From positions 19,878-83,877 of the forward strand of contig JACMKU010000062.1 of the NCBI GenBank assembly GCA_014379965.1: a stretch of 64,000 nucleotides of DNA, in the 5' to 3' direction. Positions 7,048 through 49,225 of the stretch are shown here, one piece after another. Below the pieces are notes generated by a model. It ran no database searches, was not told where the DNA came from, and worked only from the letters and a program-made list of their open reading frames with translations. Positions within the stretch are counted from its first letter, which is position 1. Each line of letters opens with the position of its first letter. This DNA comes from Chitinophagaceae bacterium (GTDB taxonomy: Bacteria; Bacteroidota; Bacteroidia; Chitinophagales; Chitinophagaceae). A program made the position numbers and the translations under genes.

Positions 7048-7050
7048 CAG

Positions 7051-13379: not shown

Positions 13380-13382
13380 CTT

Positions 13383-16179: not shown

Positions 16180-16217
16180 TCGGTATTCTAATCTTCAACT
16201 ATTCTAAAAAATAATAT

Positions 16218-17318: not shown

Positions 17319-17353
17319 ACGACACCATTATTAAAATTCTTAAAAAATTTCAT

Positions 17354-18484: not shown

Positions 18485-18520
18485 CTCGTAACTCTTTAAT
18501 CATAATTAAAAACAGTCTTT

Positions 18521-18979: not shown

Positions 18980-19001
18980 CGAAATAGTATAATGGCGTTC
19001 T

Positions 19002-19520: not shown

Positions 19521-19530
19521 CCCTTGATCT

Positions 19531-22176: not shown

Positions 22177-22186
22177 AAAGACAAAA

Positions 22187-22477
22187 ATGCCTTCAGCAGC
22201 TCGGCTTACGGATTTTCATACTTGTCCCATGTTCAATGGGCCATCGCCGCATGTTGGCGGTCCAGTATCGGGCCCCGGCGCCTCGACGGTAATGATCGGG
22301 AGTTTGCCAGCGGCACGGGTAGGTGACATGTTGGTTTGTGCTGGCCCGCCGGATGTGATAGTAAAAGGATCAGGTACTGTATTTATCGCCGGCATGCCTG
22401 CTGCGAGGCAAGGCGATAGTACGGCGCACGGTGGAATTATTGTAGCCGGCCTGCCCACGGTACAAATAGGAGGATAA
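22187..22477 (+). CDS. PAAR domain spike-tip protein (Afp10-like)
   Basis: 96 aa with two PAAR motifs (GSLPAARVGD, IAGMPAARQGD) plus a Cys/His zinc-site context (FHTCPM). Confidence 0.9.
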   Translation: MPSAARLTDFHTCPMFNGPSPHVGGPVSGPGASTVMIGSLPAARVGDMLVCAGPPDVIVKGSGTVFIAGMPAARQGDSTAHGGIIVAGLPTVQIGG

Positions 22478-22482
22478 AAATC

Positions 22483-22908
22483 ATGGAACAAACTTTCAAT
22501 TCCTTTTTAGGTACGGGCTGGTCATTTCCTCCGGCATTCAACGCGAGTACTGGTGTGGTGGAAATGGTGAGCGAGGTGGAGGACATCAATCAAAGCCTCG
22601 ACATATTGCTTTCTACAAGTATAGGAGAACGCGTGATGCAGCCGGATTATGGCTGCAATTTGAACGATTATATGTTTGAAGGTCTGGGTAGCGATCTTAT
22701 TGGAATCATCAAGCACCACGTGGAGAATTCAATATTATATTATGAACCAAGAATCATTGCAGAGAAAGTAACTGTTACTACCGCGGACTCAACGGACCTG
22801 CTAGAAGGTAAGTTCGTGATCACTGTAGAATATCTTATACCGAAGACGAACTCCAGGTTCAACTATGTATATGATTACTACCTGAATGAGGCCACAGCCA
22901 GAATATAA
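22483..22908 (+). CDS. GPW/gp25 family baseplate wedge protein (Afp9-like)
   Basis: 141 aa with FLGTGWSFPP and LLSTSIGERVMQPDYGCNL, typical of the gp25 lysozyme-like fold family. Confidence 0.85.
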   Translation: MEQTFNSFLGTGWSFPPAFNASTGVVEMVSEVEDINQSLDILLSTSIGERVMQPDYGCNLNDYMFEGLGSDLIGIIKHHVENSILYYEPRIIAEKVTVTTADSTDLLEGKFVITVEYLIPKTNSRFNYVYDYYLNEATARI

Positions 22909-25900
22909 ACTAAGAGCTATTAATGTCATGTTCAATTGCGATTGTATTATTCATCCTTTTCAAAATGAACCGGGTACCAGCCAGAGGCAGCGTATCATGG
23001 ACGAGCTCTTGGGTGAAGCAGCTAAGATCGATGCTCGAACTCTCGCAGACCTGTTGGATTATTTTGTCAAGTTAGCCCCGCATATAAACTATTACGACAC
23101 AAAAATGGTAATGGGCGACTGGCGGCCATTTTTCAAAAATAGCATCCCCTTTACCCTTTCCTCCGTCATCAACTACCCAATCAAAGGAGCGGCTGCAAAT
23201 TTTAGTATTTATAACTCACTGTTTAATCGGAAGCCACTTGCAACTGGCTTACAGCTGAATGCGCATTTCCTGTATTATTATTTCATAAAAAGAATAAATC
23301 AATTGCAGGAGGTATTGGCAAAGAGTGAACTGCCAATGGAAGGCTTTTTGGACAATCTGATACGTGAGAAACTCAGGGCTCCTGTAGTCGAATTTATTTC
23401 TTACGTGAATGCCGCGGTACAAAGACATGGAGTTCGTAGAATTGATTTCAGCCCCCTTTATCAGAATGCGACATGGAATATCGGGTTGGATGAGCTTTAT
23501 GGTATCTACTCACCCACAGTTTTAGGTCTGCCTCAAACTTTCAAAAGCCTTCACGCTCTCAATGATAAGTTGAAATCGCTATTCCCTGTTTTTGAAGAAA
23601 GTATCAGATCACTGAGCCTGGAGGCGGAAAAGAATCTGAACCTGAGCCTCATTCACAGCAAAGAAGAACTGCAAAAGAAGCACGAACCACACCTGGCACT
23701 CCTGTTTGCGTTTCTTAACCTCTTCAGATATCTGCAAGACGATCTGAACGGGTATACACGTCGCCACCTTGATTTCTTTTACAAGGATATCCTCAAGCTA
23801 AAGCCCGGCGCTGCCACACCGGACAGGGCTTTCATTCTATTCGAAATTCAGAAGCAACTCAAGAAGCATATTCTCAATAAGGGTCTGTTGTTGAAAGGAG
23901 GTAAGGACGATAAGAAACAGGAAATACTATTCGCACTGGATGACGAGATTGCCGTAAACAAGACTGAGGTGGTAGACAAGAGGACTCTTTTTGTTAATAA
24001 CAGGCTGGCTCACGGAGCCACTTATGTGGAAGGCGTTTACATGGCACCAGACGCAACTAAAGCCGACGGAGTGAATAAGGATTTCCCTGGAGACATAGCG
24101 AATTTCAATACCGTTGGCAATAAGCTAAGTAAGCATGTAGACCCTGAGACCAAACTCATCAAGCCTTTTCCTAACGCGAGACTGGGATTTGTCCTTGGGT
24201 CTAACGTACTGTTCATGGGAGACGGTAGTACAAGAAACGTTGAGGTCACTCTTAAATGCAGATTGAACGAAGCTATATGTCAGCAGTTCGCCGCAGCGGG
24301 AATTAGGAAGCAAGATTGTTGCTCGGAAGGAGGTCAGAACCAGGGAGCGGCGAAAGACGAATTTGTTCCAGAATATTCCGCCGTAACATTTTTGAGTAGG
24401 ATTGAGAGTCTATTGAATAATACCTACTACTACCTGGACCAGGACATCTTAAGAGAAGCGATAAAGAAGGGGATCGACCAGGATCTTGTTCTGAGGTTGA
24501 AAGAACATTTTCTACTGGAGCCCAGCCCGAAATTTGATGGGCGAAAACCAAAAGACTATTGTAATTGCCCGGTGAAGAAAGATCGCTATGAAGGTGTCCT
24601 TAAGGAGGCCGACTACTATGCGGAGTTTGGCAACGAGGTTGAAACTTTAGCGCCGTTTATCAAGCCACGAAAGCTCTTGACCGTTTTGTTTAGCGGAGCG
24701 AAGGAGTGGATTGAGCCTGTAATCGGAAAGCGATCCACTGATCCGTTATTTACAAAAAACCTTTCGTTTGCCATTTCAAATGTCAATGCGAATAAGTTCC
24801 TGTTGACTATCAATGCTACCCTAACCCCCGAAATGCCTGCAGTAGGTTTTTACAACGCTCTTGCGTTAAAGGAGGAATTAGGAACGACGCTGCCACTCGC
24901 AAAATTTGAACTCGATGACAAGATCAAGTTCATGAACGTGGCGCTAAGGACCCTGGCGACGCACGACCTACCCGAAGAAGAATGCTGTGTGCAGTCAAAG
25001 GATTGCTGCCTGCTTATTGAAGAAGGAAAAGATATTCATAACATTTCTGCTTATCATTTTTTCAGGAATGTAATGTTGAATGAGACAGACCCAAACGCGA
25101 CTGTGATTAAGGTCGATGTGTGTGGTCTCAAACATGCTATTGTCCAGAATGATGACAGCGTAATGGATATCAATGGACCAATCGTTCCATTTGGCCCACG
25201 TCCCAAGATCGGGTCGAATTTTTATGTAGGTACAGAGGAAATATTCATGAAGAGATGGCGGGATATATATATTAACCTCAACTGGAAAGATCTTCCTCCC
25301 GGGGGGTTTAAAAGTTACTATGAGGCATATCAGACCAGGCTGGTAGGTTTACCTCCTTCTAATATAGTTGAAGACAATCAGTTTAAGATTGAACTTGCCA
25401 TATTGCAGGATGGGAACTGGATTCCGTGGACACATGGTGTGGTAGGTGATAATCTTCCCAATAAGAAGTACAACCTTTTTCAAACCTTCGTGAACCCTGG
25501 GATCTATTGCGTTAATACGCCCGTATTCCAGCACCAATTCGCGATCTCTCATGCGAATGATTTCAATAATCTCCCGTATCCTAGTGAAAAGATCATTTTC
25601 AAGAACATCAAAAAATTTGAAGTCTTAAGCCGGAATTGCTTCCTTAGAATCACATTAAGGTTCCAGGACTTTCAGCATACTATTTATCCATTTATCTTAG
25701 GCAGGCAGATGACGGCTCAAGGGAAACTTCCGCAGGATACAGTTAACGGCGCCGTTTACTACGCACCCGGCACCACAAGTCCTATGACATTCGACGCAAA
25801 TCAGATTAAGACACAAATAGAAGATGCCTTTAATCTTTCGGTAGAAGTGAAAAGAGAAGTAAGCGACCCTATTGGTGGGGATGGAATCCAGGAGAATGTT

Positions 25901-27496
25901 GGAATTCTGGGTAATATTCCAGCAGGCAACGCCAATCGTATTCGGACTATTCTTCGCCCTCCAATTATATTGATCCCGGGAGAGAATCTGGTTAACGAAT
26001 CCATTGCGTTGCATGCGACACTAGATGCTGTAAATAAGAAGATCGATGACATTAAGAAATTTGCAGCTGTAATTCCTCCGGAACCATGGACACCAACGAT
26101 TAATTTGTTTGAAATAGGGTATGTAGCGGTTGCAACGATTCGGGAGATAGATATGATACACCTGTATCCATTCGCAGGCACATACAAACAGGAAGAGATA
26201 GAGCTACAGCCGCCGCTCTTTCCTACATTCTGTGATGAAGGCAATTTATTCCTTGGATTAAATGACCTCGTGCCTGGTAACAACCTGAATATCCTATTCC
26301 AGTTGGCCGAGGCCACTTCAGATTCTGAGTCGGTTAAGGCAGAAGTTTCGTGGTACTACCTTGACAGCAATACATGGAAGACCCTGCGGACCGGGTTCGA
26401 GGTCCTGGATGATGGTTCGCTTGACCTCACCAGGTCGGGAATAATAAAGTTTGCGCTACCATCTAATATGACGAAGGACAACACGGTAATGCCGGGAAAT
26501 TTACATTGGATAAAGGCTTCCGTGAATAGAAATAGCCGGTCTGTGAGCGAGACGACCGGTATACATCCCCAGGCCATGCTGGCGATGTTTTCTCATACTC
26601 CTGGCAATGATACATTGAGACTTGATAAACCTTTACCGAAAGGGACCGTCGGGAAACTAAACACCGCCGATGCATCCGTGAAGACAGTACAACAGCCATA
26701 CGAGACTTTTGGGGGACGTTTACCCGAAAGCGAAGGACCTTTCTATATACGAGTCAGTGAATTATTGCGACACAAAGGGAGGGCTATCCAACCCTGGGAC
26801 TATGAACGGCTGACGCTTGAACAATTTCCCGAATTATATAAGGTAAAATGCATCAGTCACAGTTTCGCTTTGGACGCGAATAAATACAAGAATGATTTCC
26901 CATACGCACCGGGCTATGTTGTGTTGGCTGTGATTCCGGATTTATACAAATTGAAGGCCGGGCTTTCTTTTGAACCAAAGGCGCCAGTGTCTGTCCTCGA
27001 GAAAGTGGAGGCATTCATCCGCAAGCGCACATCACCCTTCGTACGGTTCAAGGCACGAAATCCTATCTATGAAAAGGTGAATTTCTGTATTCGCGTACAG
27101 TTGATAAAGGGGAAGGATGAAAATTACTACAAGGAAAAACTAAAAGAAGATTTACGACATTTTTTGGCACCGTGGGCAGTCGGCATTTTTTCAAAACTTA
27201 GTTTCGGCGAATGTGTATATAGGTCAGAAATAATACGGTTCCTCGAAACCACACGCTACGTTGATTTCATCACGGACCTGCGGATGGGAAAGGACGGCGA
27301 ACTCCCCGGACCCAACATTCACAGGGTTTGTCCTGACACACCTCGTTCTATTCTAATTGCCGGAGATATCGAGGTCTGCATCGAAAAGCCTGAATGCATA
27401 GACTGGAACGATGAGTTTGAGGGATGTGAGGGTAAAAAGATTGGAGAGTGCGATAACAAATCCGAACTGTTCATTGATTATTGTAAACCAAAATAG
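22886..27496 (+). CDS. Large baseplate J-like protein (Afp11-like)
   Basis: 1536 aa. The C-terminal third carries the baseplate-J signature (LLRHKGRAIQPWDYERLTLEQFPELYKVKC). The start is uncertain: 22886 overlaps gp25 by 23 nt, and an alternative ATG lies at 22928. The C-terminus is Cys-rich. Confidence 0.75.
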   Translation: MRPQPEYKLRAINVMFNCDCIIHPFQNEPGTSQRQRIMDELLGEAAKIDARTLADLLDYFVKLAPHINYYDTKMVMGDWRPFFKNSIPFTLSSVINYPIKGAAANFSIYNSLFNRKPLATGLQLNAHFLYYYFIKRINQLQEVLAKSELPMEGFLDNLIREKLRAPVVEFISYVNAAVQRHGVRRIDFSPLYQNATWNIGLDELYGIYSPTVLGLPQTFKSLHALNDKLKSLFPVFEESIRSLSLEAEKNLNLSLIHSKEELQKKHEPHLALLFAFLNLFRYLQDDLNGYTRRHLDFFYKDILKLKPGAATPDRAFILFEIQKQLKKHILNKGLLLKGGKDDKKQEILFALDDEIAVNKTEVVDKRTLFVNNRLAHGATYVEGVYMAPDATKADGVNKDFPGDIANFNTVGNKLSKHVDPETKLIKPFPNARLGFVLGSNVLFMGDGSTRNVEVTLKCRLNEAICQQFAAAGIRKQDCCSEGGQNQGAAKDEFVPEYSAVTFLSRIESLLNNTYYYLDQDILREAIKKGIDQDLVLRLKEHFLLEPSPKFDGRKPKDYCNCPVKKDRYEGVLKEADYYAEFGNEVETLAPFIKPRKLLTVLFSGAKEWIEPVIGKRSTDPLFTKNLSFAISNVNANKFLLTINATLTPEMPAVGFYNALALKEELGTTLPLAKFELDDKIKFMNVALRTLATHDLPEEECCVQSKDCCLLIEEGKDIHNISAYHFFRNVMLNETDPNATVIKVDVCGLKHAIVQNDDSVMDINGPIVPFGPRPKIGSNFYVGTEEIFMKRWRDIYINLNWKDLPPGGFKSYYEAYQTRLVGLPPSNIVEDNQFKIELAILQDGNWIPWTHGVVGDNLPNKKYNLFQTFVNPGIYCVNTPVFQHQFAISHANDFNNLPYPSEKIIFKNIKKFEVLSRNCFLRITLRFQDFQHTIYPFILGRQMTAQGKLPQDTVNGAVYYAPGTTSPMTFDANQIKTQIEDAFNLSVEVKREVSDPIGGDGIQENVGILGNIPAGNANRIRTILRPPIILIPGENLVNESIALHATLDAVNKKIDDIKKFAAVIPPEPWTPTINLFEIGYVAVATIREIDMIHLYPFAGTYKQEEIELQPPLFPTFCDEGNLFLGLNDLVPGNNLNILFQLAEATSDSESVKAEVSWYYLDSNTWKTLRTGFEVLDDGSLDLTRSGIIKFALPSNMTKDNTVMPGNLHWIKASVNRNSRSVSETTGIHPQAMLAMFSHTPGNDTLRLDKPLPKGTVGKLNTADASVKTVQQPYETFGGRLPESEGPFYIRVSELLRHKGRAIQPWDYERLTLEQFPELYKVKCISHSFALDANKYKNDFPYAPGYVVLAVIPDLYKLKAGLSFEPKAPVSVLEKVEAFIRKRTSPFVRFKARNPIYEKVNFCIRVQLIKGKDENYYKEKLKEDLRHFLAPWAVGIFSKLSFGECVYRSEIIRFLETTRYVDFITDLRMGKDGELPGPNIHRVCPDTPRSILIAGDIEVCIEKPECIDWNDEFEGCEGKKIGECDNKSELFIDYCKPK

Positions 27497-27507
27497 AATA
27501 AGGCGGA

Positions 27508-30500
27508 ATGGCAGGTGAACTCGAAAATAAACTGATAAGCAAGACTAATACAGGGTTTCCCGACTATCTTGACTTCAACCGACTCAGGACCGAAGCGATT
27601 CACCATATCGGCAAGTTATCGGGGAAAGTGTGGACGGATCACAATGTACACGACCCTGGTATCACCATACTGGAGACACTCATCTACGCAATCCTCGACC
27701 TTGGATATCGTACTAACCTGCCGCCAGCCGACCTGTTTGCAAGTGACCCTGAAAACAAGGATCCCGATAACAATTTCTTTCTCCCTTCTCGGATCCTTGC
27801 CAACAATCCTCTGACGATAACTGACTTTCGTAAACTATTGGTGGATATCAGGGGAGTAAAGAACGCCTGGTTGGAAGTCGATGAGGAGATGGCAGTGGAT
27901 TTTTGCGATGATGAGATAAAGCAACGTGACAGGTACGAAAAGCAACAGAAAGACAAACGCCAACCTTGCGAATGCGATAGAGTAAACGGGCTGTATCACG
28001 TTTATATACAATTGGAAGACTCAATCGATCCTGCCTCAACAGTAGGAGATGCAATAATCTCGAAGATCAAACGGGTATTGTTCGCCCACAGGAATCTGTG
28101 TGAAGATTACCTCGACATTAAAGTATTGTGCAGACTGGAGATCGGTTTATGTGCCGATATAGAACTGGAGCCCGGTATTGACGTAGATGAAGCATACAGG
28201 GTGATCACCGCGTCGCTGGGAGAATTCTTCTCGCCTTCTCCACGGTTTTATACTTTCCAGGAACTCCTGGATAAAGGGAGAACGGTGGATGAGATATATG
28301 CAGGAAGACCGTTTGATATTACGGAGAGTCATGGGTTTGTGGACACACAGGAATTTGAGGAAATGAGGCTTAGGAGGATGATTCACCTTTCCGATGTATA
28401 CAACCTGTTGTTTTCATTGAAAGGGGTTAGCAGTATCCGTAACCTCGGGTGGATTACCTGCTGCGAGGATAAAGATAGAAAGAGCAATTCTAGCTGGCAG
28501 CTGCATCTTCCAGAGCATCATATACCCATATTTTCTGAAGTATGTTCAGGTTTCCGATTTTATCAAACCGGGATACCAGTAAAAAGGACTATCACAAATG
28601 GGCTGGCAAATAACCTCGGGCTTCGTCTCAGGCCAAAAGGAGTTTATAAGCTTCCCTCTCCCTATCTGGAACCCGAGTATCCCCGAGGCACATACAGAAA
28701 AGACCTGGCAGATTACTTTTCAATCCAGAATGATTTTCCAAAAGTATATGGCATAAGTGAAGGGGGGTTGGCTAACGATGTTTCTGTCAAACGTAAGTCG
28801 CAAGCAAGGCAGCTCCAGGGGTTTCTCCTTTTCTTTGATCAACTTCTTGCCAATTATCTCGTTCAGCTAAAAAATATCCGATCTCTTTTTTCTTTGACAT
28901 CATCTTCGGATAAAAAATCGAACCATACCTATTTTACTAACCAGCTTAAAGACGTTCCATACTTCAAAGAGCTTGTCCGTTTTTCAACAGAGGAGGGAAT
29001 TACAGGAAAAGAAGGTAACATTCTTGCGTATCCCACGCCGCGAAAAAATCTTCAAACCGTTATTGAAAGCGACAAATTGAAATTCCATGGGGTCGGCAAA
29101 AATTGTGATGATCCTTGTAATGATGACTTTCCGGAATACAGGTACTGCTTTGCTACCGAGCGCGACCAGGGCGCAGTTCAATTGCGGCATGATCTGCAGT
29201 ACGGGGAGTTTGAGCCCGTGATTGTTTCTAACACGGAGAATTGCTATTTCTTCTACCTGTTTACGTCATCAATGGACTTTGCAGTCATCAGCAGGAATTT
29301 CTATGGAAGTGAGCAGGAGGCAAAAAATGCGGCCACCTCTTTCAGATATATAGGTTCATCTGAACGTAATATCAGGCGATACGTGGTAAAGGGAAAAAGA
29401 CATCGGGACGAACGCTTCTCCTTCTCTATTGAGCTCAACCTGGCGACCTATGCCTCATACCTGCAGGAGTTGGTAGAAGACGACGAGCTATATCGGTCAA
29501 GACGGCAGAACTTCCTGGATCACCTGTTAGCCAGGTTCGCTGAGAAGTTTGCGATCTATGGTTTATTGAGTTCCGGTCATTTCAGTGCCAGCGACATCAG
29601 CACTCGAAAGATAAAGGCCGTTGAAAAATTCTTATCGTCATATGACGATATCAGCAGCAATCGTGGGAAGGCCTATGATTATACAAAGGATATTTCTAAA
29701 ATCAAAAACACTTCGGGGTTTGAGAAAAGATTCAAAGCGCTTGCTGGGATCGATAATTGGGATCGTCACTATCTCTGCAATTTCGTGGTTGAAGCTGCGG
29801 ATCAGGAATACAGGATCCTGATTGAACTGTTCAATGAAGCTTTTGAGGTCCCCGACAAACTATTCAGTAAAGCCGGCGCTTTGGCGTCGCTTCAAGCTGC
29901 CTATTCAAAGTTGTTGGACAAACCCGTCTTTGAGACAGAGGCAAAAAGGGATGGATCTGGATGGCAGATATTCTTCCGGGATGGAGTAAACAATAAATAC
30001 GTGCTAAGGCGCGAAGCCGTTAGCATGGACGAAGCCTCGGCAATCAGGAAAAAACTAGATGCGTTCTATAACCTCAAACCCGATAGGCAGGAAAATGTGC
30101 ACGTTGGCACAGAGATATTCAAGGTGGTGGTGGCAGATCATGCAGGAACGCCGTTGGCGGAGAGCAAGGAGAAGTTTGACAATAGAGAGAAAGCGATAGC
30201 ATTTTCCGATCGCATTGTACCGAAGGTCTCCGGACATCTGAAAGACGAGAAGGAATTTACCTGGTTTCAGAAGAAGAACGCACCCGAAAAGCTGGTTCTA
30301 CGATCGAAGCATAGTGGTCGGTCGGAATTCATAGATGTAACAGGGTTTAATTACAAAGAAGTGGATGTACATCACCTCAAGACTGTGAAGAAGAGGTTCT
30401 CTATGATTAACCGGGAGGCTACCATCCAATTCGATTCTCTGATTAATCACGATACTTCAAAGCATGCTAAGGAAGAGTTTCAACAACTTCTTCTCCTGTT

Positions 30501-33500
30501 GCACGATGAGGATAACTATAAAGTTGAAAAAGACCTCGATGAAAAGGTTTACAAGTTATATGTCAGTGACGGGACAAAGAAGAGAGCAGTGTTCCTCGAC
30601 ACTTTCCAGGGGGAGGCAGAAGGACTCGCTAAAGCTGTTGAGCTTTTTTCAGGTGTACGATCCCAAACCTACCGGACAACCATTTCCGATCCTATAGCGG
30701 ACACCTGGGAATTTATCTTCAAAGCCACCGACCTGGAAGGAAATGAATTGAAGTTCAAGAGCGACGCTTCGTTTAAAAACGAGGAGAAGGCCTGGGTTGC
30801 AGCTAGAGAATTTCACAGGCAGATCGAATTCACGAATGTGAAAAGCACGAAGGAGGGGATGCGGATAGAATTAAATAAGAAAGCTGGAGGAATGCAAGTC
30901 GTTGCATCTTTAGGCGATCTTGATGAAGAGAAGAAGGCGGCCTTGCAGAGAGAACTCGAGACGAGGATAAAGACTGTTGGGGCATTGAAAGAGGTGGATA
31001 AGGAATCGCTGGAAGGCAGGCTCGAGCAGTTCCGCGTGAATAAGAACGAGGAGTATATATTTAAACTTGTAGATAAGAACAACCTGCGCGCGTTAGTGAC
31101 GAGGTCAGCCTGGAAAAAGTTTAATGATGACCCGATTTTGCTGAAAGCGGAGTTGGTCAAACTCGCGGAGAATGGATTTAACTATATCGATATTTACCTG
31201 GCAGGCGAGATATTCACTGAACGAAAGGAGCCGGCGAGTAAGGCAAGGCGATATCATTACCAGGTTAAATGCACGAACCGTTTTTATCAAGCCGGTCCAT
31301 TAGCAGGGAAAGAATTGATCCTGTTTGAAAGCATAATGGGATACCAGGATAGGGAAGAAGCACAAAAGGGTTTTGAGAAAGACCTTCATCTATTGTTGCA
31401 AAAGGCAATGGATCCCGCAAACTACGGCCTTGATGAAGTGATCAGCACAGAAATAGAACTCGATTATGTGTTGGATAGCTGCAATACCCGAAAGAGTATT
31501 GTCTTCATTCCAAAAGAGACGATGGACCATTTTGGTGGCTATGAGGTTCACCGTGGCATCATCCCTTTGGTGAAAAGCTATCCTATCAGGCTGATTGGGA
31601 AGGACAGGTACATTTTCGTGGCGGCCAATATCGATGAAGCGAAGAGTGAGACGCAGGTGTATTGGAGAAGCACAAAAAGCTTTATCGATTCGACAGAGGC
31701 AATGCACGAGTTTCAATTCTTCCTGGTGCTGATAAAATTTAAAGGAAACTATTACCTGGACAAGTCACCTGGCGCCATTCGGCCACACCTATATCTCAGG
31801 GAGGTGTTAGCAGTAAGCGCACATGGATATCCCACGGCGGCCGCAGCATGGGGCACTGAAGGGATCTGGAAGTTCATTTGCGTTGCACAAGCCAAAAATG
31901 GATTTCATAACTATTGGAATTGGAAGCAGTGTAATTATAGCTTCTATACGGCTTGCGGAAACACTGGACTAGTGCATCCGTGTTCATATGAATCACCAAA
32001 GAGGCGGGATGCGGTGATGGCCCGTTTAATTGCGGGATCGGGATTCGATTTTACATCTCTACTGAGTATCGAGGATGCTCAGCACATCCTGCTACACAAA
32101 TATGACAAGACGGTGGGTGCAGCAATTTCCCGTATCAATATCGTTGGCCCACCGCTATTTGACGGTAATGGCAAGATCTCATATAACAACCCGGATTTCT
32201 GTAGATGGATGCTCCAACTTATTGAATGGGCAGGCGACGATACAAGATATTCGCCCAAGGTAAAAGGTTGGCAGCTCGTAATTAAATACACTGATCCAAA
32301 CGATAAGAAAGTGAAGGATCATGTATTGGCAGAATCGCTGGAGGATGATATTTCAAAACAACAATGGAAGATGCAACTTCTGTCAGCTTTGTGTTATTTC
32401 CCAATAAACAAAGTAGACGATCGCTTTTATGTCGAGTTTCGCCTTCCGGGCGCAGATGATTGCTTCAGTGTCGGGTATTCCCAGGAAAAAGATGTGTGCG
32501 AGGATTGTGAGGTTTCCTGCTATAGTTCCTGGAAGAGCGAATGTTGTTTCAGCACTTGTGTTGAGGCGTGGAGATTTTATTATTATGCACTTGCGCTGAT
32601 ACGAGTTCGCGAGAACTACAAACCGGTTTATGATTGCGAATGTGGATCCTATCGCGTCGAGCTACATCCTCAGTTGAACACAGAAGGAAAAAGAATGCTA
32701 GCCCAATCTCTTAAGGAGGTCAATGATAGCAGTAAGAGAATGCTGGAGTTGGCCAGTCGTTCATTTGGAGGCGTGCGACAACAGGAAACAGGTTCAGCAC
32801 CGAGAGGTATCAAGTGTCTTAGCGAGATAGTCGCCATTAACCCTCAACTATACACAAACGAAAGAATGGCTTGTGAAGCGGTTGACCGTGCGAAGAGTTT
32901 AATTAATAGTGAAGGTCTTCACCTGGTGGAACACATCTTGCTTCGACCGCGGTGTAAGGATAAAGATGGGAAATATCTTGATTGTAAATGTGAAGGCGAT
33001 CCGCTGCCTGGTCCGTGTATTCCAGATGAGGATAAGGTCTGCCATTTTAAATGGTCACCAGGAGCAGATGCAGAGCGGTGCGAATTGGAGAAGACAATTT
33101 GTTTTACTCCCGGATGCGACCCTTATTCCTTTATTGCTACGGTGGCATTGCCTGCATGGCCCGCCCGTTTTCGCACAAAGGCGGGTAGAGAGATTGTTGA
33201 GAAGGCGTTACGTCGTGAGGCGCCGGCGCACATCCTGTTACGAATACTCTGGCTCACCCCGCGTGATTATTGCTGCTTCGAATATTATTTCAGGCAATGG
33301 AGCCAATGGTTGGCACTTAAGGATATGAGCGCTCCCTACTCTAATTGTCGTTTCCTCGAATTGTTGTTTAAGAAAAAATTTCCCGAACTGCCGGAGTGTA
33401 CTGAGTGTATCCCTTGTGAGCCGCTGGCCACAGTGGAGCCTAATTGCTTCGAGAATGATCGAAAACCAAGCAAGGACTGCGACGTGATGAACATTGAGGC

Positions 33501-34161
33501 AACAGTGAGCAGGCAGGTGAACGAACTGTTTTGCTGGTCACGAGATTCCTGGCCAGATGCGGAAGAAGAAAAATACAGGGCCTGTGGTGAAATGGAGGAG
33601 CGAGTTTTCGAAAGATCCTTGATGCCGGAACAGAAGAAAGACAAAGACGAGGCGGTTAAGATGGATGCAAACAGGAAAGGAACAAAGGAATATGCGAAGG
33701 AAAAGGCAAGCGTTGTGAGAGGCCGCGCCAAACGTTACGCAGATCATGTAGGGATGATATTGGCAGCGTATGGACAAAACCATGTGGCGAGGGAAGCTGG
33801 AACATTCCTTACCAATACAGAAGCTAAACCCGAGGTATACAAGGAGTTGGTCCATAAAATACTTGATGAGGGACCAGAAACGAGCCCTGACCACTTACAT
33901 GACGTGGCGAAGGAGGAGCTCATCAAGAATATAACCTGGAAATACCTGGACCTTGCCTGCTTCAGCAACAAGGAGACGGTGGAGGAACAGGATAAGGAAC
34001 GGGAGAAGATTGTACAGTTGGCGGAATTCTTTCGGTCCTTGCGAGAGCGTAAAGTGGATATGCAGAGGGTATTTGACGGCTGGGACGAGAAGCAGGTTGC
34101 CAGGTACGAGTCTCTACCAGGGGGAAATAGTGTTCGCAATATTTTAACCGGGGATCAATGA
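27508..34161 (+). CDS. Giant baseplate-associated protein (Afp12-like N-terminus plus long extension)
   Basis: 2217 aa. The N-terminal motif WTDHNVHDPGITILETLIYAILDLGYR is one I associate with eCIS Afp12-type baseplate proteins. The remaining ~1900 aa are unassigned and include Cys-dense blocks near the C-terminus. Confidence 0.6.
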   Translation: MAGELENKLISKTNTGFPDYLDFNRLRTEAIHHIGKLSGKVWTDHNVHDPGITILETLIYAILDLGYRTNLPPADLFASDPENKDPDNNFFLPSRILANNPLTITDFRKLLVDIRGVKNAWLEVDEEMAVDFCDDEIKQRDRYEKQQKDKRQPCECDRVNGLYHVYIQLEDSIDPASTVGDAIISKIKRVLFAHRNLCEDYLDIKVLCRLEIGLCADIELEPGIDVDEAYRVITASLGEFFSPSPRFYTFQELLDKGRTVDEIYAGRPFDITESHGFVDTQEFEEMRLRRMIHLSDVYNLLFSLKGVSSIRNLGWITCCEDKDRKSNSSWQLHLPEHHIPIFSEVCSGFRFYQTGIPVKRTITNGLANNLGLRLRPKGVYKLPSPYLEPEYPRGTYRKDLADYFSIQNDFPKVYGISEGGLANDVSVKRKSQARQLQGFLLFFDQLLANYLVQLKNIRSLFSLTSSSDKKSNHTYFTNQLKDVPYFKELVRFSTEEGITGKEGNILAYPTPRKNLQTVIESDKLKFHGVGKNCDDPCNDDFPEYRYCFATERDQGAVQLRHDLQYGEFEPVIVSNTENCYFFYLFTSSMDFAVISRNFYGSEQEAKNAATSFRYIGSSERNIRRYVVKGKRHRDERFSFSIELNLATYASYLQELVEDDELYRSRRQNFLDHLLARFAEKFAIYGLLSSGHFSASDISTRKIKAVEKFLSSYDDISSNRGKAYDYTKDISKIKNTSGFEKRFKALAGIDNWDRHYLCNFVVEAADQEYRILIELFNEAFEVPDKLFSKAGALASLQAAYSKLLDKPVFETEAKRDGSGWQIFFRDGVNNKYVLRREAVSMDEASAIRKKLDAFYNLKPDRQENVHVGTEIFKVVVADHAGTPLAESKEKFDNREKAIAFSDRIVPKVSGHLKDEKEFTWFQKKNAPEKLVLRSKHSGRSEFIDVTGFNYKEVDVHHLKTVKKRFSMINREATIQFDSLINHDTSKHAKEEFQQLLLLLHDEDNYKVEKDLDEKVYKLYVSDGTKKRAVFLDTFQGEAEGLAKAVELFSGVRSQTYRTTISDPIADTWEFIFKATDLEGNELKFKSDASFKNEEKAWVAAREFHRQIEFTNVKSTKEGMRIELNKKAGGMQVVASLGDLDEEKKAALQRELETRIKTVGALKEVDKESLEGRLEQFRVNKNEEYIFKLVDKNNLRALVTRSAWKKFNDDPILLKAELVKLAENGFNYIDIYLAGEIFTERKEPASKARRYHYQVKCTNRFYQAGPLAGKELILFESIMGYQDREEAQKGFEKDLHLLLQKAMDPANYGLDEVISTEIELDYVLDSCNTRKSIVFIPKETMDHFGGYEVHRGIIPLVKSYPIRLIGKDRYIFVAANIDEAKSETQVYWRSTKSFIDSTEAMHEFQFFLVLIKFKGNYYLDKSPGAIRPHLYLREVLAVSAHGYPTAAAAWGTEGIWKFICVAQAKNGFHNYWNWKQCNYSFYTACGNTGLVHPCSYESPKRRDAVMARLIAGSGFDFTSLLSIEDAQHILLHKYDKTVGAAISRINIVGPPLFDGNGKISYNNPDFCRWMLQLIEWAGDDTRYSPKVKGWQLVIKYTDPNDKKVKDHVLAESLEDDISKQQWKMQLLSALCYFPINKVDDRFYVEFRLPGADDCFSVGYSQEKDVCEDCEVSCYSSWKSECCFSTCVEAWRFYYYALALIRVRENYKPVYDCECGSYRVELHPQLNTEGKRMLAQSLKEVNDSSKRMLELASRSFGGVRQQETGSAPRGIKCLSEIVAINPQLYTNERMACEAVDRAKSLINSEGLHLVEHILLRPRCKDKDGKYLDCKCEGDPLPGPCIPDEDKVCHFKWSPGADAERCELEKTICFTPGCDPYSFIATVALPAWPARFRTKAGREIVEKALRREAPAHILLRILWLTPRDYCCFEYYFRQWSQWLALKDMSAPYSNCRFLELLFKKKFPELPECTECIPCEPLATVEPNCFENDRKPSKDCDVMNIEATVSRQVNELFCWSRDSWPDAEEEKYRACGEMEERVFERSLMPEQKKDKDEAVKMDANRKGTKEYAKEKASVVRGRAKRYADHVGMILAAYGQNHVAREAGTFLTNTEAKPEVYKELVHKILDEGPETSPDHLHDVAKEELIKNITWKYLDLACFSNKETVEEQDKEREKIVQLAEFFRSLRERKVDMQRVFDGWDEKQVARYESLPGGNSVRNILTGDQ

Positions 34162-34167: not shown

Positions 34168-35712
34168 ATGCAACACATAATTAAAAAGCAAATGGTGGAG
34201 TTGACGATTTCCAACAGGAAGCATGCTTTTCGACTACAACAGTTGGTAAGCGAGCACTACTGGCGCGACATGGTGCGGGTAATTGCAAAGGCATTTGATG
34301 AGGCCACCGGAGAGGAGGAAATACTGCAGGTTGACAAACTTGAGATCGATCTTGGTAGAATTAGCGAAAAGGATATCATGAAAGGGAGATGGACGGAGGT
34401 ATTATTCAAGAAGATCACCGAAAAATTGAAAGAGCTGAAACATGCACCTGTTCCTGGAATGAATGTCTCTATAGTTTTGAACGCGATCGGAGTTGCCGAT
34501 CAATGGCTGTTCTACATGCTCCGTGGGTTTCTGCCATGGAATGTCAAGGCGATCGACTTGAAATGGCATGTCCAGGTGCTGCAGGCATTCGCAACAGAAC
34601 ATGCCGCTATTGTTAAACTCCGGAATGCTATTCTGAATCATCCCAACATGGTGACAAGGATAGTGCGTCAACACGGGGAAGATTTTGTTGTAGCCCTGTT
34701 GGAAGCGATTACTGCAAAAGACCAAAAGGAATTACCAGAGGTAGTAGATGAACTAATAAAGGTGATTTGCTTCCTGGAGGAAGAGAATCAAGTCAGGAGC
34801 ACTTCAAAAGCGTATCATCTCAAAGAAAGGTTATGGCAACAGGTCTTACTCCTTGCCGCGCGACGGCAAGGACGGTTTACCAGGAGGGAATTTGTTGAAA
34901 CGCTATTTCGGTCGGGTTATATCCCACTGCGAGCTGAAATAGTACTTCCAATAGAACTCCTCACTTCCGGAAGACTGACTGGAGAAATCCTAGGTGAGTT
35001 GTTATCTATTCAGTCACGAAAACAGGAAGGTGGGGAGGAGACGGAGTCGGCAGGCTCGACTGAGGTAGAGGATGAAAACAGTGTGAAGAAGAAAATGAAG
35101 AAAACTGACCCGGCTGACGGTAAGTCTGATTTAGGATTGGAATCAATTTACGGTAAGGATTCTCCAGAAAATATGGATCGTAAAGGATTGAATGATCCCG
35201 GTCATCTCAGGGATGAAGCGATCTATGTACAGCACGCAGGCGTGATATTGTTGCACTCGTTCCTGAAACCATTTTTTCATAACCTCGGATTGCTGAATAA
35301 GAACTATTTCATTGATGCTCAATCTCGGGAGCGGGCAGTTTTCCTAATTTATTTCCTGGCTACTGGGAAATTGAAGGCGGAGGAACACGAGCTGGTCATT
35401 GAAAAACTTCTGTGCGGATATCCGCTACAAATGCCAGTGCATCGTGAGGTGGTGTTGAATGATAACGAGATCCGGGAGGCGGCCGAGTTGCTAGGAAATG
35501 TGATACGGCATTGGAAGATATTGAAGAATACATCGGTCGACGGACTGCGCGAAAGTTTTCTCCTGCGTCCTGGCAAACTTGGCGATGGTAAGGATGGGCC
35601 CGTATTGCAGGTAGAGCGAAGCAGCATCGATGTATTACTGGATGATATTCCCTGGAATTATACCCTGATCCAGTTAGCATGGCGGAAAGATCTCATCAGG
35701 GTGGAATGGTAA
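34168..35712 (+). CDS. Putative contractile injection system tape measure protein (Afp14-like)
   Basis: 514 aa. The N-terminus MQHIIKKQMVEL...ILQVDKLEIDLGRI matches my recollection of the Bacteroidota CIS tape-measure family. Its position after the baseplate genes fits. This call rests on memory only. Confidence 0.5.
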   Translation: MQHIIKKQMVELTISNRKHAFRLQQLVSEHYWRDMVRVIAKAFDEATGEEEILQVDKLEIDLGRISEKDIMKGRWTEVLFKKITEKLKELKHAPVPGMNVSIVLNAIGVADQWLFYMLRGFLPWNVKAIDLKWHVQVLQAFATEHAAIVKLRNAILNHPNMVTRIVRQHGEDFVVALLEAITAKDQKELPEVVDELIKVICFLEEENQVRSTSKAYHLKERLWQQVLLLAARRQGRFTRREFVETLFRSGYIPLRAEIVLPIELLTSGRLTGEILGELLSIQSRKQEGGEETESAGSTEVEDENSVKKKMKKTDPADGKSDLGLESIYGKDSPENMDRKGLNDPGHLRDEAIYVQHAGVILLHSFLKPFFHNLGLLNKNYFIDAQSRERAVFLIYFLATGKLKAEEHELVIEKLLCGYPLQMPVHREVVLNDNEIREAAELLGNVIRHWKILKNTSVDGLRESFLLRPGKLGDGKDGPVLQVERSSIDVLLDDIPWNYTLIQLAWRKDLIRVEW

Positions 35713-35751: not shown

Positions 35752-38700
35752 ATGAAAACTTCTGCTCCAAAGCATGCGGCAACTTCTACCGCGACTCATT
35801 CCTCATTCTTCAGGAAAGGGGGGCAGCAAGATTTTTTTTCAAATACATCGGGAAGGCAGCCATTTTTCTCCAATGATGGGGCGGGCATACAGGCCAAGCT
35901 CACGGTAGGAGAGCCTAACGATAAATACGAGAAGGAGGCGGACTCTGTGGCGGACAAGGTCGTTCAGAGAATGGGAGACAATAGCACTTCAACTATCCCA
36001 GATAAAAACGGTATTCAAAGGAAAGCAGTAAATCCTGCTTCGCCTGTCACACCACAGCTGCAGACGAAATGCGACCATTGTGAAGAGGAAGAAATGAAGG
36101 AAAAGGAACAGCAGCCGGAAAAACTTCAGCGCAAACCTATTTTTGAAAGTTCACCCGAGGCGACCGAAGAGGAAACAGTACAACGCAAATGTGCAGAATG
36201 CGAGAAGGAAAAAGAAGAAGAGCATGCAACTCCGGATGCAGAAGTGAATTTGAAGTGTGATGAGTGCGAGAAAGAGGAACAAGTGCAGTCGAAGGAGGAT
36301 ACAATGGTAAACCTGAAGTGTGCGGAGTGTGAGGAAGAAGAGCACGTTCAGTCGAAAAAGGAAACAGCAGTGAATCTGAAGTGTGCCGAATGTGAAAACG
36401 ACGACAATCAGCTGCAACGAAAACCGGAGACAGAGTCTACCTCTTCAATTGACATTGAAGCCACTCTTAGCCAATCTAAAGGATCCGGTTCTCCTCTACC
36501 AGAACCTACGAGAATGGAGATGGAATCTTCGCTTGGATCCGACTTATCGGAGGTAAGGATTCACAATGATTCTACCGCTCAGCACCTGAGTAAAAACCTG
36601 CATGCCCAGGCATTTACCCATGGGAATGACATTTATTTTAATGCAGGCAAATTTGACACAAGTAGCAAAGGCGGGCAACACCTATTAGCCCACGAAATAA
36701 CTCATACGATTCAGCAGAGCAATGGTATTCACAAATCACCGGCGCCAAATATCCAGAGGGAGCCCCAAATGTTCAAGTACGCACTGGTGTATTCGTTTAA
36801 AGGAGAACCTATTTACTATTCCTTTTCTCTTTCTGAAGCTGCCGTGGGAAGGATAAACTCAAATCCCGAATCCGAGAGGCTTATTAAACAAGCGTTGGAT
36901 AAGGTTTTTTATTTCGATAAAGTCCCGGTATATGAAACACCGCCTTTTCTCGCCACAAAAAAGGTTCTCGATTTGATAAATGCAGATCTCGAATTATGGA
37001 ATGGCCAGGGGGATGTGCATCTACGGAAACTTAACTACATGATTACCCGAAGATGGGAATCGATCAACGAAACATTTTTTTTGGAATCGATAATCGAGCA
37101 CTTGAAGCAAGTGGGGATAGATGCATCGTATATCGATTGGAATAAATTAATTCCTTTGCTGAAAGAAGACCTCACCTATTGGACACCACAATCGGCCATC
37201 GAGGCTTCAGAGTTCGACCGCTACGAATGGGTCCTTGATCTTTTGGAGGCGGAAGTCTCAGGAATGGATGCTGTGGTTGGCACTAAAGACTTTGACCCAA
37301 CGGAGTTTAATTATGTATTGTACTCTTTTATTGACAGTAATGAAGCCTTATTCCCGAAAGAGGTTATACAGGAGCATAGCGAGAAATTTCTAATACCGTG
37401 GCTGGAAAAAATAAAAGACGTCAAGTATGCCCCAGATGGATTTTCATTGGAGACGTTCCTGCCTGGAGATGAAGTACAAAAAGCTGAAAGTACACGGGCT
37501 GCACTTCTAAATCAATTCGTCGCAAACGAGGTTCCGGAACTGATGTTCAATTTTGTGTTGGACACATGGGCGACAAGTCAACTCGATCAGAAAACTTGGC
37601 TGAAAACGCTCGATATAAATTCTTATCGAGAGAGGCTTTTGATATTGCTAACAAACATTTTCCTGGATAAAGCTAAAACGGATCCGATTTATCTCAAGGC
37701 TCTAAGAATGCAATCTATAGAGAACGCCAAGTACAATCTTATTAGGATGTTCTATCAGAAGGCATTGAGCGCACAAAGATACAATTCCAATCTTCAAGCT
37801 ACATTCTCCAAAGGATTCAAATCTGAGATGGACCCTGATCAGGTAGCCATCCTGGAAAGCCCTTATGAATACTTCGACGTGTCCGTCAAGATCGCTTCCG
37901 CCACTACTCAGTTTTTAGGTACGATTCAGCCTGATCGATCTATCGGAGATGATACCATAAAATTGATAACTGATGTGACTGCGGCGATGAAAGTTCCAGC
38001 TCAATATGGATTTTTATTAATTGGGTTTGTGACGTTTTGCGATTTGATCAAGCAATATCAGAAAACTATAGAGGAGGAGAAGGCCAGGATCAACGAGGCA
38101 ATCAGGAAGAGGATCAATGTGAGTATTGATGATATAGCAAAAGTTATCAGTCAGTGGTACGAGGTCGCCGAGCAGTTCATGGATAAGAAGTTCAAACCGA
38201 TGTTGAAAACGGTCGCACTCGAATGGCTCGCATCTAATAAGGAAGATATCCGGAATATTCTTGCAAACTACGACACTGCTATTATTAGCTATGTAAGTCA
38301 GCTTAAAGAGAGTGCCGAGGAACTTCAGGCGATCGCAGATGGCTTGCAAAACGATGAGTATGACGAAGTGGAGTTCGAAGGGGAAACAATTACTAAGAGC
38401 TCCTTGCCTGAACTTAAAACCACTATTGAAGCTCTTCGTGCATTGGCTGATAAACACTCATCCAAAGAAAAATCCGAGGAAGAAAAAGGTAAACTTCAGG
38501 AGGCGCTTGACGTTTATGAAGACGTAAAAGAAGATATCCTGGATGATGAATTCGAATGGCTGGACTACACAAAAGACATATTTGAAGAGGCAAGGAGACG
38601 ATTAGGCATTGGTGAGTTTCCTGAGTATGCACGTTATGTAGACATTTTCACCGGGAGAGCTGTCGCTTCGAAGAGTCCGTTCCTCGCGAGGATGATACAA

Positions 38701-47419: not shown

Positions 47420-49225
47420 ATGTGGCTTGGAAAAATAATATCATTCTTTCTGAGAAAACGTAAAGTGAAACTCTTAGCAGCTCCGAGCCCAACTATTGCC
47501 GGATTATTGGAAATTAAGACGACGGGTGAAGAGAAAAATAATGAAGACAAAGGGACGATCATAAAAATGCTGACTATGCAACACGAAGACACAAATCATT
47601 CAAAGGAATTTACCTACCTGGAAGAACTGATCCGGTATCGTCTGAATCGGTATTTCCCTACTCCTCGTGAACACCCGGATTATGGAAAGCATGACAGACC
47701 CCCAACGCTTCCCGAACCATCGGAATGGCGTCTGCCTTTCTTTGACTTCGTGATGAATACAAAGCCACGGCTCACCGATAATGAGATCGTTCTCGCTTTA
47801 ATTGGTCTGGCCCCCCATATACAGCCGGATCTGTTTGACCGGGCAATAGAAAGCAAGTTGCCGAAAGACAATGAATTTTACACAGATTTCCCAAGGTTGG
47901 GCGGAGTGCGTGGGAAGAACTGCCGTTTCTTTCTACCGACCGGAGAGACTGCGTTATTCCTGATAGCGGGTGACAATTACAAGAGGAGGTTAATGGTGCA
48001 GCAGTATTTTGCGGCGGAGCATCAATTCTGGCAAAAGAAGATTTTATGGTTGGAGGATATGCAGAATGGAGAACCAGCGATGCATGGCCGCCTTATTATC
48101 TCGCCAGATTATGTCGATCTAATGACTTTCGGCAAACACAGGTCTCCACAATTTAGCATCAGTTTTCCTGCCAAGAAAATTGCTCCGGAAGAAGAAAAGG
48201 ATATGAAAGTGGAGGAGGAGGAACTAAAGAAAATAAAATGTAAAAAGGAAGAAGAAACCCATGATGATAAACCAAGGAGGGGAGTGGCTTCATTTGATCA
48301 GTTAGTCATTCCAAAAGAATTGAAGGACCAAATAGATGAAATCAAGATCTGGTTGAAATATAAGGATCAGTTGATGGACAAAATGGACATGTTAAAGAAA
48401 GGGTACAGGACACTATTCTATGGGCCGCCGGGCACGGGTAAGACATTCACGGCGAAGATTCTTGGAAATGAGCTTGATAAGGAAGTGTATAAGATCGATC
48501 TGTCAATGATCGTGTCCAAGTATATTGGGGAGACGGAGAAAAACCTCGAGCTTTTGTTTGCGCAGGCAGAAGGGAAGGGGTGGATTCTATTTTTTGACGA
48601 AGCCGATGCGCTATTCGGTAAACGAACCAATGTTCGCGATGCGCATGACAAGTATGCCAACCAGGAGGTTTCCTATTTGCTGCAACGAATTGAAGACTAT
48701 AATGGATTGGTGATACTGGCAACGAATATGAAGAATAACATAGACGATGCCTTTGTACGACGGTTCAATTCGATTCTAAGCTTCCCGTTCCCAGATGCTG
48801 GTTCGAGGGCAAAGATTTGGAGGATTTTCCTTCCGACCGGAAAATTGAACACGAAAAAGATTATTTATCGTGAGAAACCTGGAATGGACCCTTACCCGGA
48901 TAGATACCATGATATCTGCAATATTCCGGCAATGGATGTTGCAGTTGATATTCCCGAAGCAGTTAAGAAATATGAATTGAGCGGGGGTAGCATCATGAAC
49001 GTGGTGCATTATGCTGGTCTAAAGGCTATAGATAGATTTAACACTGCTATCGAGGAGAGGAAAAAGCTTTATAGAATTCCTCTAGTGGAATATAGTGATG
49101 GCCCAACTGCAATTGAGAAAGAAGACCCATGTGATCCTACACCACAGTTTATCATTTACCTATCGGACGTGCTCGACGGTATCAAGCGGGAGCTGGTCAA
49201 GGAAGGGAAGCCGTTTACGCCGTAG
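47420..49225 (+). CDS. AAA+ ATPase (Afp15-like eCIS assembly/cargo-loading ATPase)
   Basis: 601 aa with Walker A FYGPPGTGKTFTAKILG and Walker B ILFFDEADALFGKR, in a CDC48/FtsH-like AAA module. The start at 47420 is 3 nt after the previous stop. An alternative ATG at 47567 is possible. Confidence 0.88.
   Translation: MWLGKIISFFLRKRKVKLLAAPSPTIAGLLEIKTTGEEKNNEDKGTIIKMLTMQHEDTNHSKEFTYLEELIRYRLNRYFPTPREHPDYGKHDRPPTLPEPSEWRLPFFDFVMNTKPRLTDNEIVLALIGLAPHIQPDLFDRAIESKLPKDNEFYTDFPRLGGVRGKNCRFFLPTGETALFLIAGDNYKRRLMVQQYFAAEHQFWQKKILWLEDMQNGEPAMHGRLIISPDYVDLMTFGKHRSPQFSISFPAKKIAPEEEKDMKVEEEELKKIKCKKEEETHDDKPRRGVASFDQLVIPKELKDQIDEIKIWLKYKDQLMDKMDMLKKGYRTLFYGPPGTGKTFTAKILGNELDKEVYKIDLSMIVSKYIGETEKNLELLFAQAEGKGWILFFDEADALFGKRTNVRDAHDKYANQEVSYLLQRIEDYNGLVILATNMKNNIDDAFVRRFNSILSFPFPDAGSRAKIWRIFLPTGKLNTKKIIYREKPGMDPYPDRYHDICNIPAMDVAVDIPEAVKKYELSGGSIMNVVHYAGLKAIDRFNTAIEERKKLYRIPLVEYSDGPTAIEKEDPCDPTPQFIIYLSDVLDGIKRELVKEGKPFTP

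Follow-up and report, generated by a model that had tools for sequence, protein, structure and literature searches.

Within a 64,000-nucleotide stretch of DNA from a Chitinophagaceae metagenome-assembled genome (MAG), called the window below, a complete extracellular contractile injection system (eCIS) locus at 12774-49225 includes the gene for a giant cargo protein of 2746 amino acids (aa). The protein is filed at NCBI as MBC7947049.1, a "DUF4157 domain-containing protein" encoded on a 99.5-kb contig, and it forms a singleton cluster known from that one contig. Why should a bacteriocin-type DNase sit in the middle of such a chain? The answer proposed here is that the giant cargo probably comprises two complete polymorphic-toxin-type eCIS cargo units, concatenated in frame. 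Two cargos fused end to end would leave a DNase mid-protein, a second nuclease at the end, and an immunity gene beside the end nuclease only, which is the arrangement found. The proposal is read from the sequence itself, through domain content, intact catalytic motifs in both nucleases, an internal repeat, unit-by-unit homology, recurrence of the architecture and the pairing of a SUKH gene with the terminal toxin, Tox-SHH (Table 1).

One line of evidence comes from relatives. A search with the whole protein returned 825 of them, and the best were mapped onto the giant cargo (P numbers denote such proteins and L numbers the loci). Three relatives of about 1550 aa (P0003, P0004 and P0005) correspond to residues ~220-1169 of the giant cargo at 37-51% identity, a span that covers DUF4157, the helical body A, a hydrophobic segment and a short module that we call pre-toxin; from there, their pre-toxin module runs straight into a Tox-SHH tail matching residues 2453-2746. 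In four others (P0006, P0007, P0009 and P0016), DUF4157 is joined directly to the equivalent of residues ~1500-2450, which contain body B. Because the relatives map unit by unit, a first unit ending in the colicin-type DNase (Col-DNase) and a second ending in Tox-SHH can be delimited. The exchange of toxins expected of polymorphic toxins is also seen: body A of P0003 is 51% identical to that of the giant cargo, yet P0003 has Tox-SHH where the giant cargo has Col-DNase, and the swap sits right after the pre-toxin module. Judged from these alignments, the DNase is the ordinary C-terminal toxin of unit 1, not an odd domain embedded in a single cargo.

The original prediction, made from the letters of the window, had described a DUF4157 eCIS cargo with an N-terminal zincin-like domain (HEITH) and, mid-protein, an HNH DNase resembling those of colicin E9 and the pyocins, with some 1380 residues behind it. 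All of this holds. The Pfam eCIS_core/DUF4157 match is strong and a complete eCIS locus surrounds the gene; HEITH (aa 314-318) contains the sole HExxH of the protein (aa 314) and, extended to HEITHTIQ (aa 314-321), fits the HExxHxxQ signature (PMC3482391). The DNase scores far above the threshold of its Pfam family, and a search of Protein Data Bank (PDB) sequences with this segment returned the DNases of colicins E9, E2 and E7, klebicin G and pyocins S2, S8 and AP41, with E down to 1e-30 for colicin E9, to which it is about 48% identical in the aligned region. In that alignment ELHH, the MDN asparagine and the distal histidines (RYH, VVH) are all matched, leaving HH..N..H..H intact, and H240, H241, N256, H265 and H269 are invariant in a 13-sequence alignment of DNase relatives; by motif, the DNase is catalytically intact. 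The residues counted behind the domain number 1380, so that it lies well away from the extreme C-terminus, the usual place in its family. The NCBIfam model NF047924, for VPA1263-type antibacterial DNase effectors of type VI secretion systems (T6SS), matches the DNase region only (E 6.6e-24; its 84 bits compare with a family cut-off of 900). The giant cargo is indeed an eCIS cargo with a bacteriocin-type DNase, though not the only one: DUF4157, the pre-toxin module and Col-DNase occur together in about 16 cluster representatives, most of them with a terminal DNase, and about a dozen of the terminal ones measure 750-1350 aa. Overlooked at that stage were Tox-SHH, the SUKH gene and the internal repeat.

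This repeat is formed by the two copies of the pre-toxin module (aa ~1101-1169 versus ~2453-2521, E 2e-10), each about 70 aa long and lying between a hydrophobic Gly/Ala-rich stretch and a nuclease domain. Eight aligned modules share the core W..L..ETR...EM..VR..LT.C..PCIP, and in the 13-sequence alignment a W, a Y, an R and two C residues are invariant. Past the module, the same eight sequences split into two classes that match the toxin type; likeness up to the module and divergence by toxin class after it point to a cassette-exchange boundary, as in polymorphic toxins. The module matches no Pfam family, and it is present in 9 of the 120 listed giant relatives and in about 15 Col-DNase cargos. 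Hydrophobic segments were called where the Kyte-Doolittle value over a 19-residue window was at least 1.5. At the end of the chain, Tox-SHH stops 29 aa ahead of the stop codon; its signature FFQSHHGI..WA (QSHHG) and a G.PH motif are invariant in six related tails, and the tail encoded in locus L004 is 46% identical to that of the giant cargo. A PDB sequence search with the C-terminal 276 aa returned nothing meaningful.

Table 1. Predicted features of the giant cargo and its eCIS locus (window coordinates; residues refer to the giant cargo).
Feature	Position	Strand	Residues	Remarks
eCIS structural genes	12774..34161	+		Pvc16 cap, sheath, three tube proteins, VgrG-like spike, gp25, two giant baseplate/fibre proteins
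eCIS tape measure protein	34168..35712	+		immediately upstream of the giant cargo
Giant cargo ORF (open reading frame)	35752..43992	+	1-2746	single reading frame of 2746 codons
Probable unit 1			1 to ~1376	disordered leader, DUF4157 zincin, helical body A, Gly-rich hydrophobic segments, pre-toxin module, colicin-type HNH DNase
N-terminal acidic leader	35752..36468	+	1-239	FFRKG..KLTVGEPNDKYEKEAD, five CxxC-E repeats, six [ILV]Q[RK] motifs
DUF4157/eCIS_core zincin-like domain	36493..36726	+	248-325	Pfam E 3.6e-29, 101.2 bits, cut-off 22
Body A, unit 1	36769..38721	+	~340-990	37-51% identity to ~1550-aa single-unit cargos P0003/4/5
Hydrophobic Gly-rich segments, unit 1	38734..39027	+	995-1039 and 1073-1092	Kyte-Doolittle
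Pre-toxin module, copy 1	39055..39258	+	1102-1169	W..L..ETR...EM..VR..LTHCSNLCVIP; hidden Markov model (HMM) E 2e-31
Col-Pyo_DNase (PF21431), internal toxin of unit 1	39511..39843	+	1254-1364	Pfam E 2.3e-34, 118.7 bits, cut-off 27
Junction	39880..40251	+	1377-1500	apparent vestigial cargo leader: PKLEPG, four [ILV]Q[RK], DCQECEREKE
Probable unit 2			~1377 to 2746	leader remnant without DUF4157, helical body B, Ala/Gly-rich hydrophobic segments, pre-toxin module copy 2, Tox-SHH
Body B, unit 2	40255..42141	+	~1502-2130	all-alpha repeat region; directly after DUF4157 in P0006/7/9/16
Hydrophobic Ala/Gly-rich segments, unit 2	42142..42315	+	2131-2188	Gly/Ala-rich stretch onward to ~aa 2330
Pre-toxin module, copy 2	43111..43314	+	2454-2521	W..L..ETR...DM..VR..MTWCNTPCIP; HMM E 2e-32
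Tox-SHH (PF15652), HNH/EndoVII nuclease, C-terminal toxin of unit 2	43603..43902	+	2618-2717	38.9 bits, cut-off 22.7
SUKH-1/SMI1_KNR4 immunity protein, 145 aa	44002..44439	+		starts ten bases after the giant-cargo stop codon
Second small DUF4157 cargo, 463 aa	46025..47416	+		same leader; weak Aspzincin_M35-like C-terminal region, E 3.6e-4
AAA+ ATPase, Afp15/Pvc15/Alg15 type	47420..49225	+		presumed cargo loader, role by analogy with the PROCIS preprint

The leader at the N-terminus is common to the giant cargo and to the 463-aa DUF4157 cargo of the same locus (E 9e-10; FFRKG ... KL.V.EP.D.YEKEAD.VA). It is presumed to be a loading sequence by analogy with AlgoCIS of Algoriphagus machipongonensis, whose cargos Cgo1 (498 aa) and Cgo2 (1228 aa) have a disordered N-terminal domain in common; loading into the tube lumen requires this domain but not DUF4157 (PMC8894135; bioRxiv 10.64898/2026.05.27.728243). 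Similar motifs reappear where the two units meet. The giant cargo contains 12 copies of [ILV]Q[RK], against 2.3 +/- 1.5 in shuffled sequences, and 10 of the 12 fall within the leader or the junction (P about 9e-7); likewise, 12 of its 18 cysteines form CxxC pairs, all in these two regions, and four more make up the two CxxxC pairs of the pre-toxin modules. At the same place, P0123 reads DCHECEREDE..TVQRQ, with the CxxCE motif in common, and in P0011 and P0124 the DNase leads straight into the leader motif F-I-[IV]-[RQ]-P-K. Residues 1377-1500 contain no DUF4157, and searches with Im (colicin immunity protein) HMMs found no Im remnant there. By its motifs, the junction is leader-derived, a remnant that appears to have lost its DUF4157 domain.

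The layout is not confined to one gene. Word-indexed searches missed almost everything, with 1 hit for the 282-aa pre-toxin and DNase segment and 4 for its 13-sequence profile, and an exhaustive HMMER search with residues 1095-1376 against 1.84 billion cluster representatives was used instead; it gave 978 hits, of which the best 150 were scored for position. In 146 of these 150, Col-DNase lies no more than 25 aa from the C-terminus. The exceptions are the giant cargo, P0011 (L001, from a hydrothermal vent), P0124 (L087, on a 104-kb contig) and P0123 (L088, truncated by its contig), all of them DUF4157 cargos with a pre-toxin module, and HH..N..H..H is kept in all four. The three others come from independent samples and lie in eCIS loci. 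Behind their DNase stands another unit, of a different family each time, and a second DUF4157 follows after ~30-75 aa; the giant cargo has none. Apart from this DUF4157, the regions after the DNase are unrelated among the four, which argues that the joins arose independently. A tape measure gene followed by the large cargo gene is syntenic in L001, L003, L004, L006 and L088 (thus directly ahead of P0011 and P0123), and in L087 two genes separate it from P0124. The latter protein (L087:6001-13320) consists of DUF4157, the internal Col-DNase, a further DUF4157 and a weak C-terminal deaminase-like domain, and the two small unannotated ORFs behind it (198 and 120 aa) may be immunity genes.

Multiple units are frequent among giant DUF4157 proteins in general. 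Of the 120 listed relatives, 80 hold more than one DUF4157 copy (two in 61, three in 18, four in 1); examples are P0012, in which an internal Endonuclease_NS_2-like domain accompanies four copies, and P0013, which has EndoU besides three. Leader motifs are denser upstream of internal DUF4157 copies (0.81 per 100 aa, versus 0.23 elsewhere), the median unit length is 1100-1200 aa, and of the units that are at least 600 aa long, 75% have a hydrophobic segment of their own. A phrase search of a paper library found no description of multiple or tandem DUF4157 in one protein, nor of an internal toxin within concatenated units; all that Zhang et al. mention is another copy of the peptidase at extreme C-termini (PMC3482391). 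DUF4157 cargos with nuclease toxins are already known; of interest here are the two-toxin multi-unit layout, the unannotated pre-toxin module, the testable idea that DUF4157 cleaves such polyproteins, and the pattern of internal toxins without immunity genes.

This last pattern deserves closer description. The original prediction had reported no Im-like ORF, and rightly so: tblastn with Im9 and Im7 gave E of at least 1 in the 64-kb window, and six-frame HMM searches built on Im9, Im7 and two eCIS Im proteins gave a best window E of 2 to 5. It had, however, missed the SUKH gene that pairs with the C-terminal Tox-SHH. The SUKH protein is 43% identical (E 6e-39) to the one encoded after P0008 in L004, and a SUKH homolog follows Tox-SHH in five of five loci, namely the window and the four Tox-SHH-only loci L002, L003, L004 and L086; loci carrying only Col-DNase have none. 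By gene adjacency and recurrence, SUKH is the predicted cognate immunity protein of Tox-SHH. In the lists of Zhang et al., SUKH immunity is paired with Tox-SHH as well as with Tox-ColE7 (PMC3482391). The need for self or kin protection that a SUKH gene implies favours bacterial targets, yet a nuclease can also kill eukaryotic cells.

Where Col-DNase is terminal, Im-type genes do occur. In L085, the gene behind a terminal pre-toxin and Col-DNase cargo encodes a PF01320 protein of 72 aa. Its homologs include Im9 (E 2e-9) and a 68-aa Im-type ORF (E 7e-9) that follows the terminal Col-DNase of L007. The HMM that detects these two genes finds no match in the window, L001 or L087. An Im-type gene thus accompanies two of the four terminal eCIS Col-DNase loci (L085 and L007) and none of the three internal-DNase loci, which, in these small numbers, fits its presence only where the DNase ends the protein. 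A 219-aa ORF in L001 was considered as a Col-DNase immunity gene and set aside, as it belongs to no recognisable family and has no relative in the window. The same was done with a 127-aa ORF in L006, from the uncultured Chitinophagaceae MAG CALCIN010000014.1, which proved to encode only the leader fragment of a small cargo and shares 54% identity with the N-terminus of the small cargo in the window. Locus L006 encodes, at 5076-9422, a 1307-aa DUF4157 and Col-DNase cargo with a near-terminal DNase (117.9 bits) and a 70-aa leader-like tail, followed by three in-frame stop codons within about 20 codons and then by the 127-aa ORF in the same frame; there is no Im gene at this locus. The arrangement looks like a decayed or nascent two-unit cargo.

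How might such a two-unit chain work? By means of the N-terminal leader, as in AlgoCIS, the AAA+ ATPase would load the entire ~300-kDa chain into the tube lumen. Once injected, the chain would be split where the leader-like junction lies; the DUF4157 metallopeptidase, a zincin proposed to be autoproteolytic (PMC3482391), may do the cutting, which would free the DNase. Each hydrophobic Gly/Ala-rich segment could insert in the target membrane and help its nuclease across, and both nucleases would then degrade target DNA. The DNase would do without an Im gene if embedding or lack of folding kept it from harming the producer, or if protection came from elsewhere. Hints of processing are the leader-type motifs at unit boundaries and the DUF4157 after the DNase in three of the four internal cases. 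Extended to giant DUF4157 cargos in general, these proteins could be polyproteins of two to four stand-alone-sized units with a single N-terminal loading signal, DUF4157 zincins cutting leader-type junctions, and embedded toxins inactive in the producer. We offer this extension tentatively, as a possibility with the odds against it. If true, it would give the long-unexplained DUF4157 "core" domain a function, and it would account for the loss of the Im gene beside internal Col-DNases and its retention beside terminal ones.

Several points weigh against the two-unit reading and the mechanism attached to it. DUF4157 proteolysis has never been demonstrated; AlgoCIS loading does without the domain, and the toxicity of Cgo1 is independent of its metalloprotease motif (bioRxiv 10.64898/2026.05.27.728243). 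The boundary of unit 2 lacks DUF4157, so that processing by this domain would need to act from unit 1. For body B, the AlphaFold2 (AF2) model (pLDDT 75) shows no recognisable fold and matched nothing in the PDB at E <= 0.001, and the model of the second pre-toxin module with Tox-SHH (pLDDT 68) gave no usable fold match in the PDB. Despite a weak Pfam annexin match (E 0.019), an annexin-like nature of body B was not adopted, annexin A4 reaching a TM score of only ~0.2 against the model. The immunity pattern comes from small samples (four terminal and three internal loci), the source is a MAG whose assembly was judged from sequence alone, and loading, cleavage, membrane translocation and the target are matters that we infer.

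Might the giant cargo instead act uncut, as a bifunctional effector with both nucleases tethered and the helical bodies serving as spacers or as a lumen-filling scaffold? The undemonstrated protease activity and the dispensability of DUF4157 for loading speak for it, as does the lack of a protease domain at the boundary between units 1 and 2. We nevertheless think it unlikely: the free C-terminus of Col-DNase in nearly all of the best representatives and the leader-type motifs at every unit boundary, which suggest a recognised junction, both count against tethering, although neither is decisive.

It is distinctly improbable that the internal DNase is a functionless relic of the fusion, with Tox-SHH, the sole nuclease with an immunity partner, doing all the work. 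Searches found no Im-type gene in the window or in either of the other two complete internal-DNase loci, the internal DNase of P0011 has a ~20-aa deletion and an HMM score down to 54 bits, and polymorphic toxins normally act through their C-terminal-most domain (PMC3482391). The DNase of the giant cargo, however, scores like the near-terminal copy of L006 and stays close to colicin E9, every catalytic residue persists in all four internal copies, and unit 1 keeps its own hydrophobic segment and pre-toxin module. Finally, an artefact, in which faulty assembly of the MAG or an error of sequencing or indel type joined a DNase-ending gene to the next cargo gene, is very improbable: the protein is known from one contig of a MAG, and the same-frame arrangement of L006, only three stop codons apart, implies that a small error could create or destroy such fusions, but the gene contains no direct or inverted DNA repeats of at least 18 nt to seed a misjoin, which dismisses repeat-mediated misassembly, its halves agree in GC (0.447 vs 0.462), in GC at third codon positions and in codon usage (r = 0.90, above any comparison with neighbouring genes), its downstream part has neither a start region of its own nor DUF4157 and is thus not plain read-through of an intact second gene, and three independent assemblies contain internal-DNase cargos, besides the many multi-unit relatives. 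The chimerism that the original prediction had considered is thus discounted as far as sequence can tell, and two concatenated units remain the preferred explanation.

Around the cargo, the eCIS locus offers some further observations. Past the giant cargo the order is SUKH, a ParA-like ATPase, a DUF4440/cupin protein, the small DUF4157 protein and the AAA+ ATPase; no orphan toxin/immunity cassette arrays lie downstream of the SUKH gene, where these four other genes stand. The ParA/MinD-like ATPase gene (44465-45229) is conserved beside cargo genes in the eCIS loci of the window, L001, L002, L004 and L087, and in L001, L002 and L087 it is adjoined by a DUF6851/VCPO_2nd protein. The gene between those for ParA and the small cargo encodes the DUF4440 and cupin protein (45072-46007); as listed, it starts within the ParA gene, and the true start is probably further downstream. 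In its Aspzincin-like C-terminus the small cargo resembles AlgoCIS Cgo1, whose C-terminal domain is a predicted metalloprotease. A 146-aa protein encoded just upstream of the cap (12219-12659) has a coiled-coil N-terminal part, a C-terminal CxxC...CxxC and a weak CIAPIN1 match (E 8e-4), and it may serve in regulation or assembly. The giant proteins at 22886-27496 (1536 aa) and 27508-34161 (2217 aa), in baseplate/fibre position, have almost no family matches; searches of PHROGs with them returned only a weak baseplate-wedge PHROG and one of unknown function, with no clue to the target, and they probably hold the receptor-binding determinants. Directly past the eCIS cluster, a 1132-aa protein (51210-54608) with the P-loop GAGGVGKTT has a STAND/NACHT-like appearance.

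DUF4157 is the most eCIS-specific accessory domain, and both its function and the reason why many eCIS toxins come without immunity genes are acknowledged open questions (PMC8213781; PMC11297309; PROCIS preprint). The present observations provide a testable framework in which units are concatenated, their boundaries carry leader motifs and usually DUF4157, and internal toxins, catalytically intact by motif, lack immunity genes. The giant cargo is in this respect a natural experiment, its internal boundary having lost DUF4157 and its two nucleases differing in immunity status. The pre-toxin module and the hydrophobic segments of each unit hint at how cargo might cross a second membrane, and for eCIS engineering they suggest that loading of multi-payload chains of some 300 kDa may be feasible.

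Among known systems, the PVC-metallopeptidase polymorphic-toxin-like proteins (PMC3482391; PMC8213781) have the same N-terminal DUF4157 with HExxHxxQ, a long linker and a C-terminal toxin swapped by recombination, and HNH-fold nucleases and SUKH immunity are their typical partners, as here; in their descriptions, however, the toxin is at the C-terminus, and the 2012 list of toxins for the PVC route contains neither Tox-ColE7 nor Tox-SHH (PMC3482391). The CdiA (VENN), Rhs and PT-TG/PT-HINT pre-toxin motifs (PMC3482391) are likewise short conserved modules that mark a recombination boundary upstream of a variable toxin; unlike them, the module of the giant cargo is preceded by hydrophobic segments and falls outside Pfam. 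The VPA1263-type T6SS effector (NF047924) carries the same Col-type DNase, C-terminally, and is also delivered by contractile injection, whereas carrier, secretion system and immunity differ. Colicins E9, E7 and E2, pyocins S2, AP41 and S8 and klebicin G belong to the same DNase family (PF21431), with all catalytic residues; compared with them, the DNase is here internal, has no Im gene and would be delivered by a contractile particle instead of by receptor and translocon parasitism.

MARTX toxins are multi-effector polyproteins with repeat-mediated translocation, in which a cysteine protease domain activated by inositol hexakisphosphate releases the effectors. The concept is alike, several effectors on one giant chain being delivered together and then separated, with no sequence relationship; for the giant cargo, a zincin is the candidate protease of a processing step that is itself hypothetical. 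The layout of AlgoCIS is similar, and lumen localisation, leader-dependent loading and toxicity have been shown there; for the giant cargo, the same properties are proposed by likeness of layout to Cgo2. Compared with the latter, the large cargo is here 2.2 times longer, with two toxin units and two nucleases. Both are Bacteroidota eCISs with one large and one small DUF4157 cargo, built from a common leader, then DUF4157, then a variable C-terminal part, and in both the tape measure and AAA+ ATPase genes belong to the same locus.

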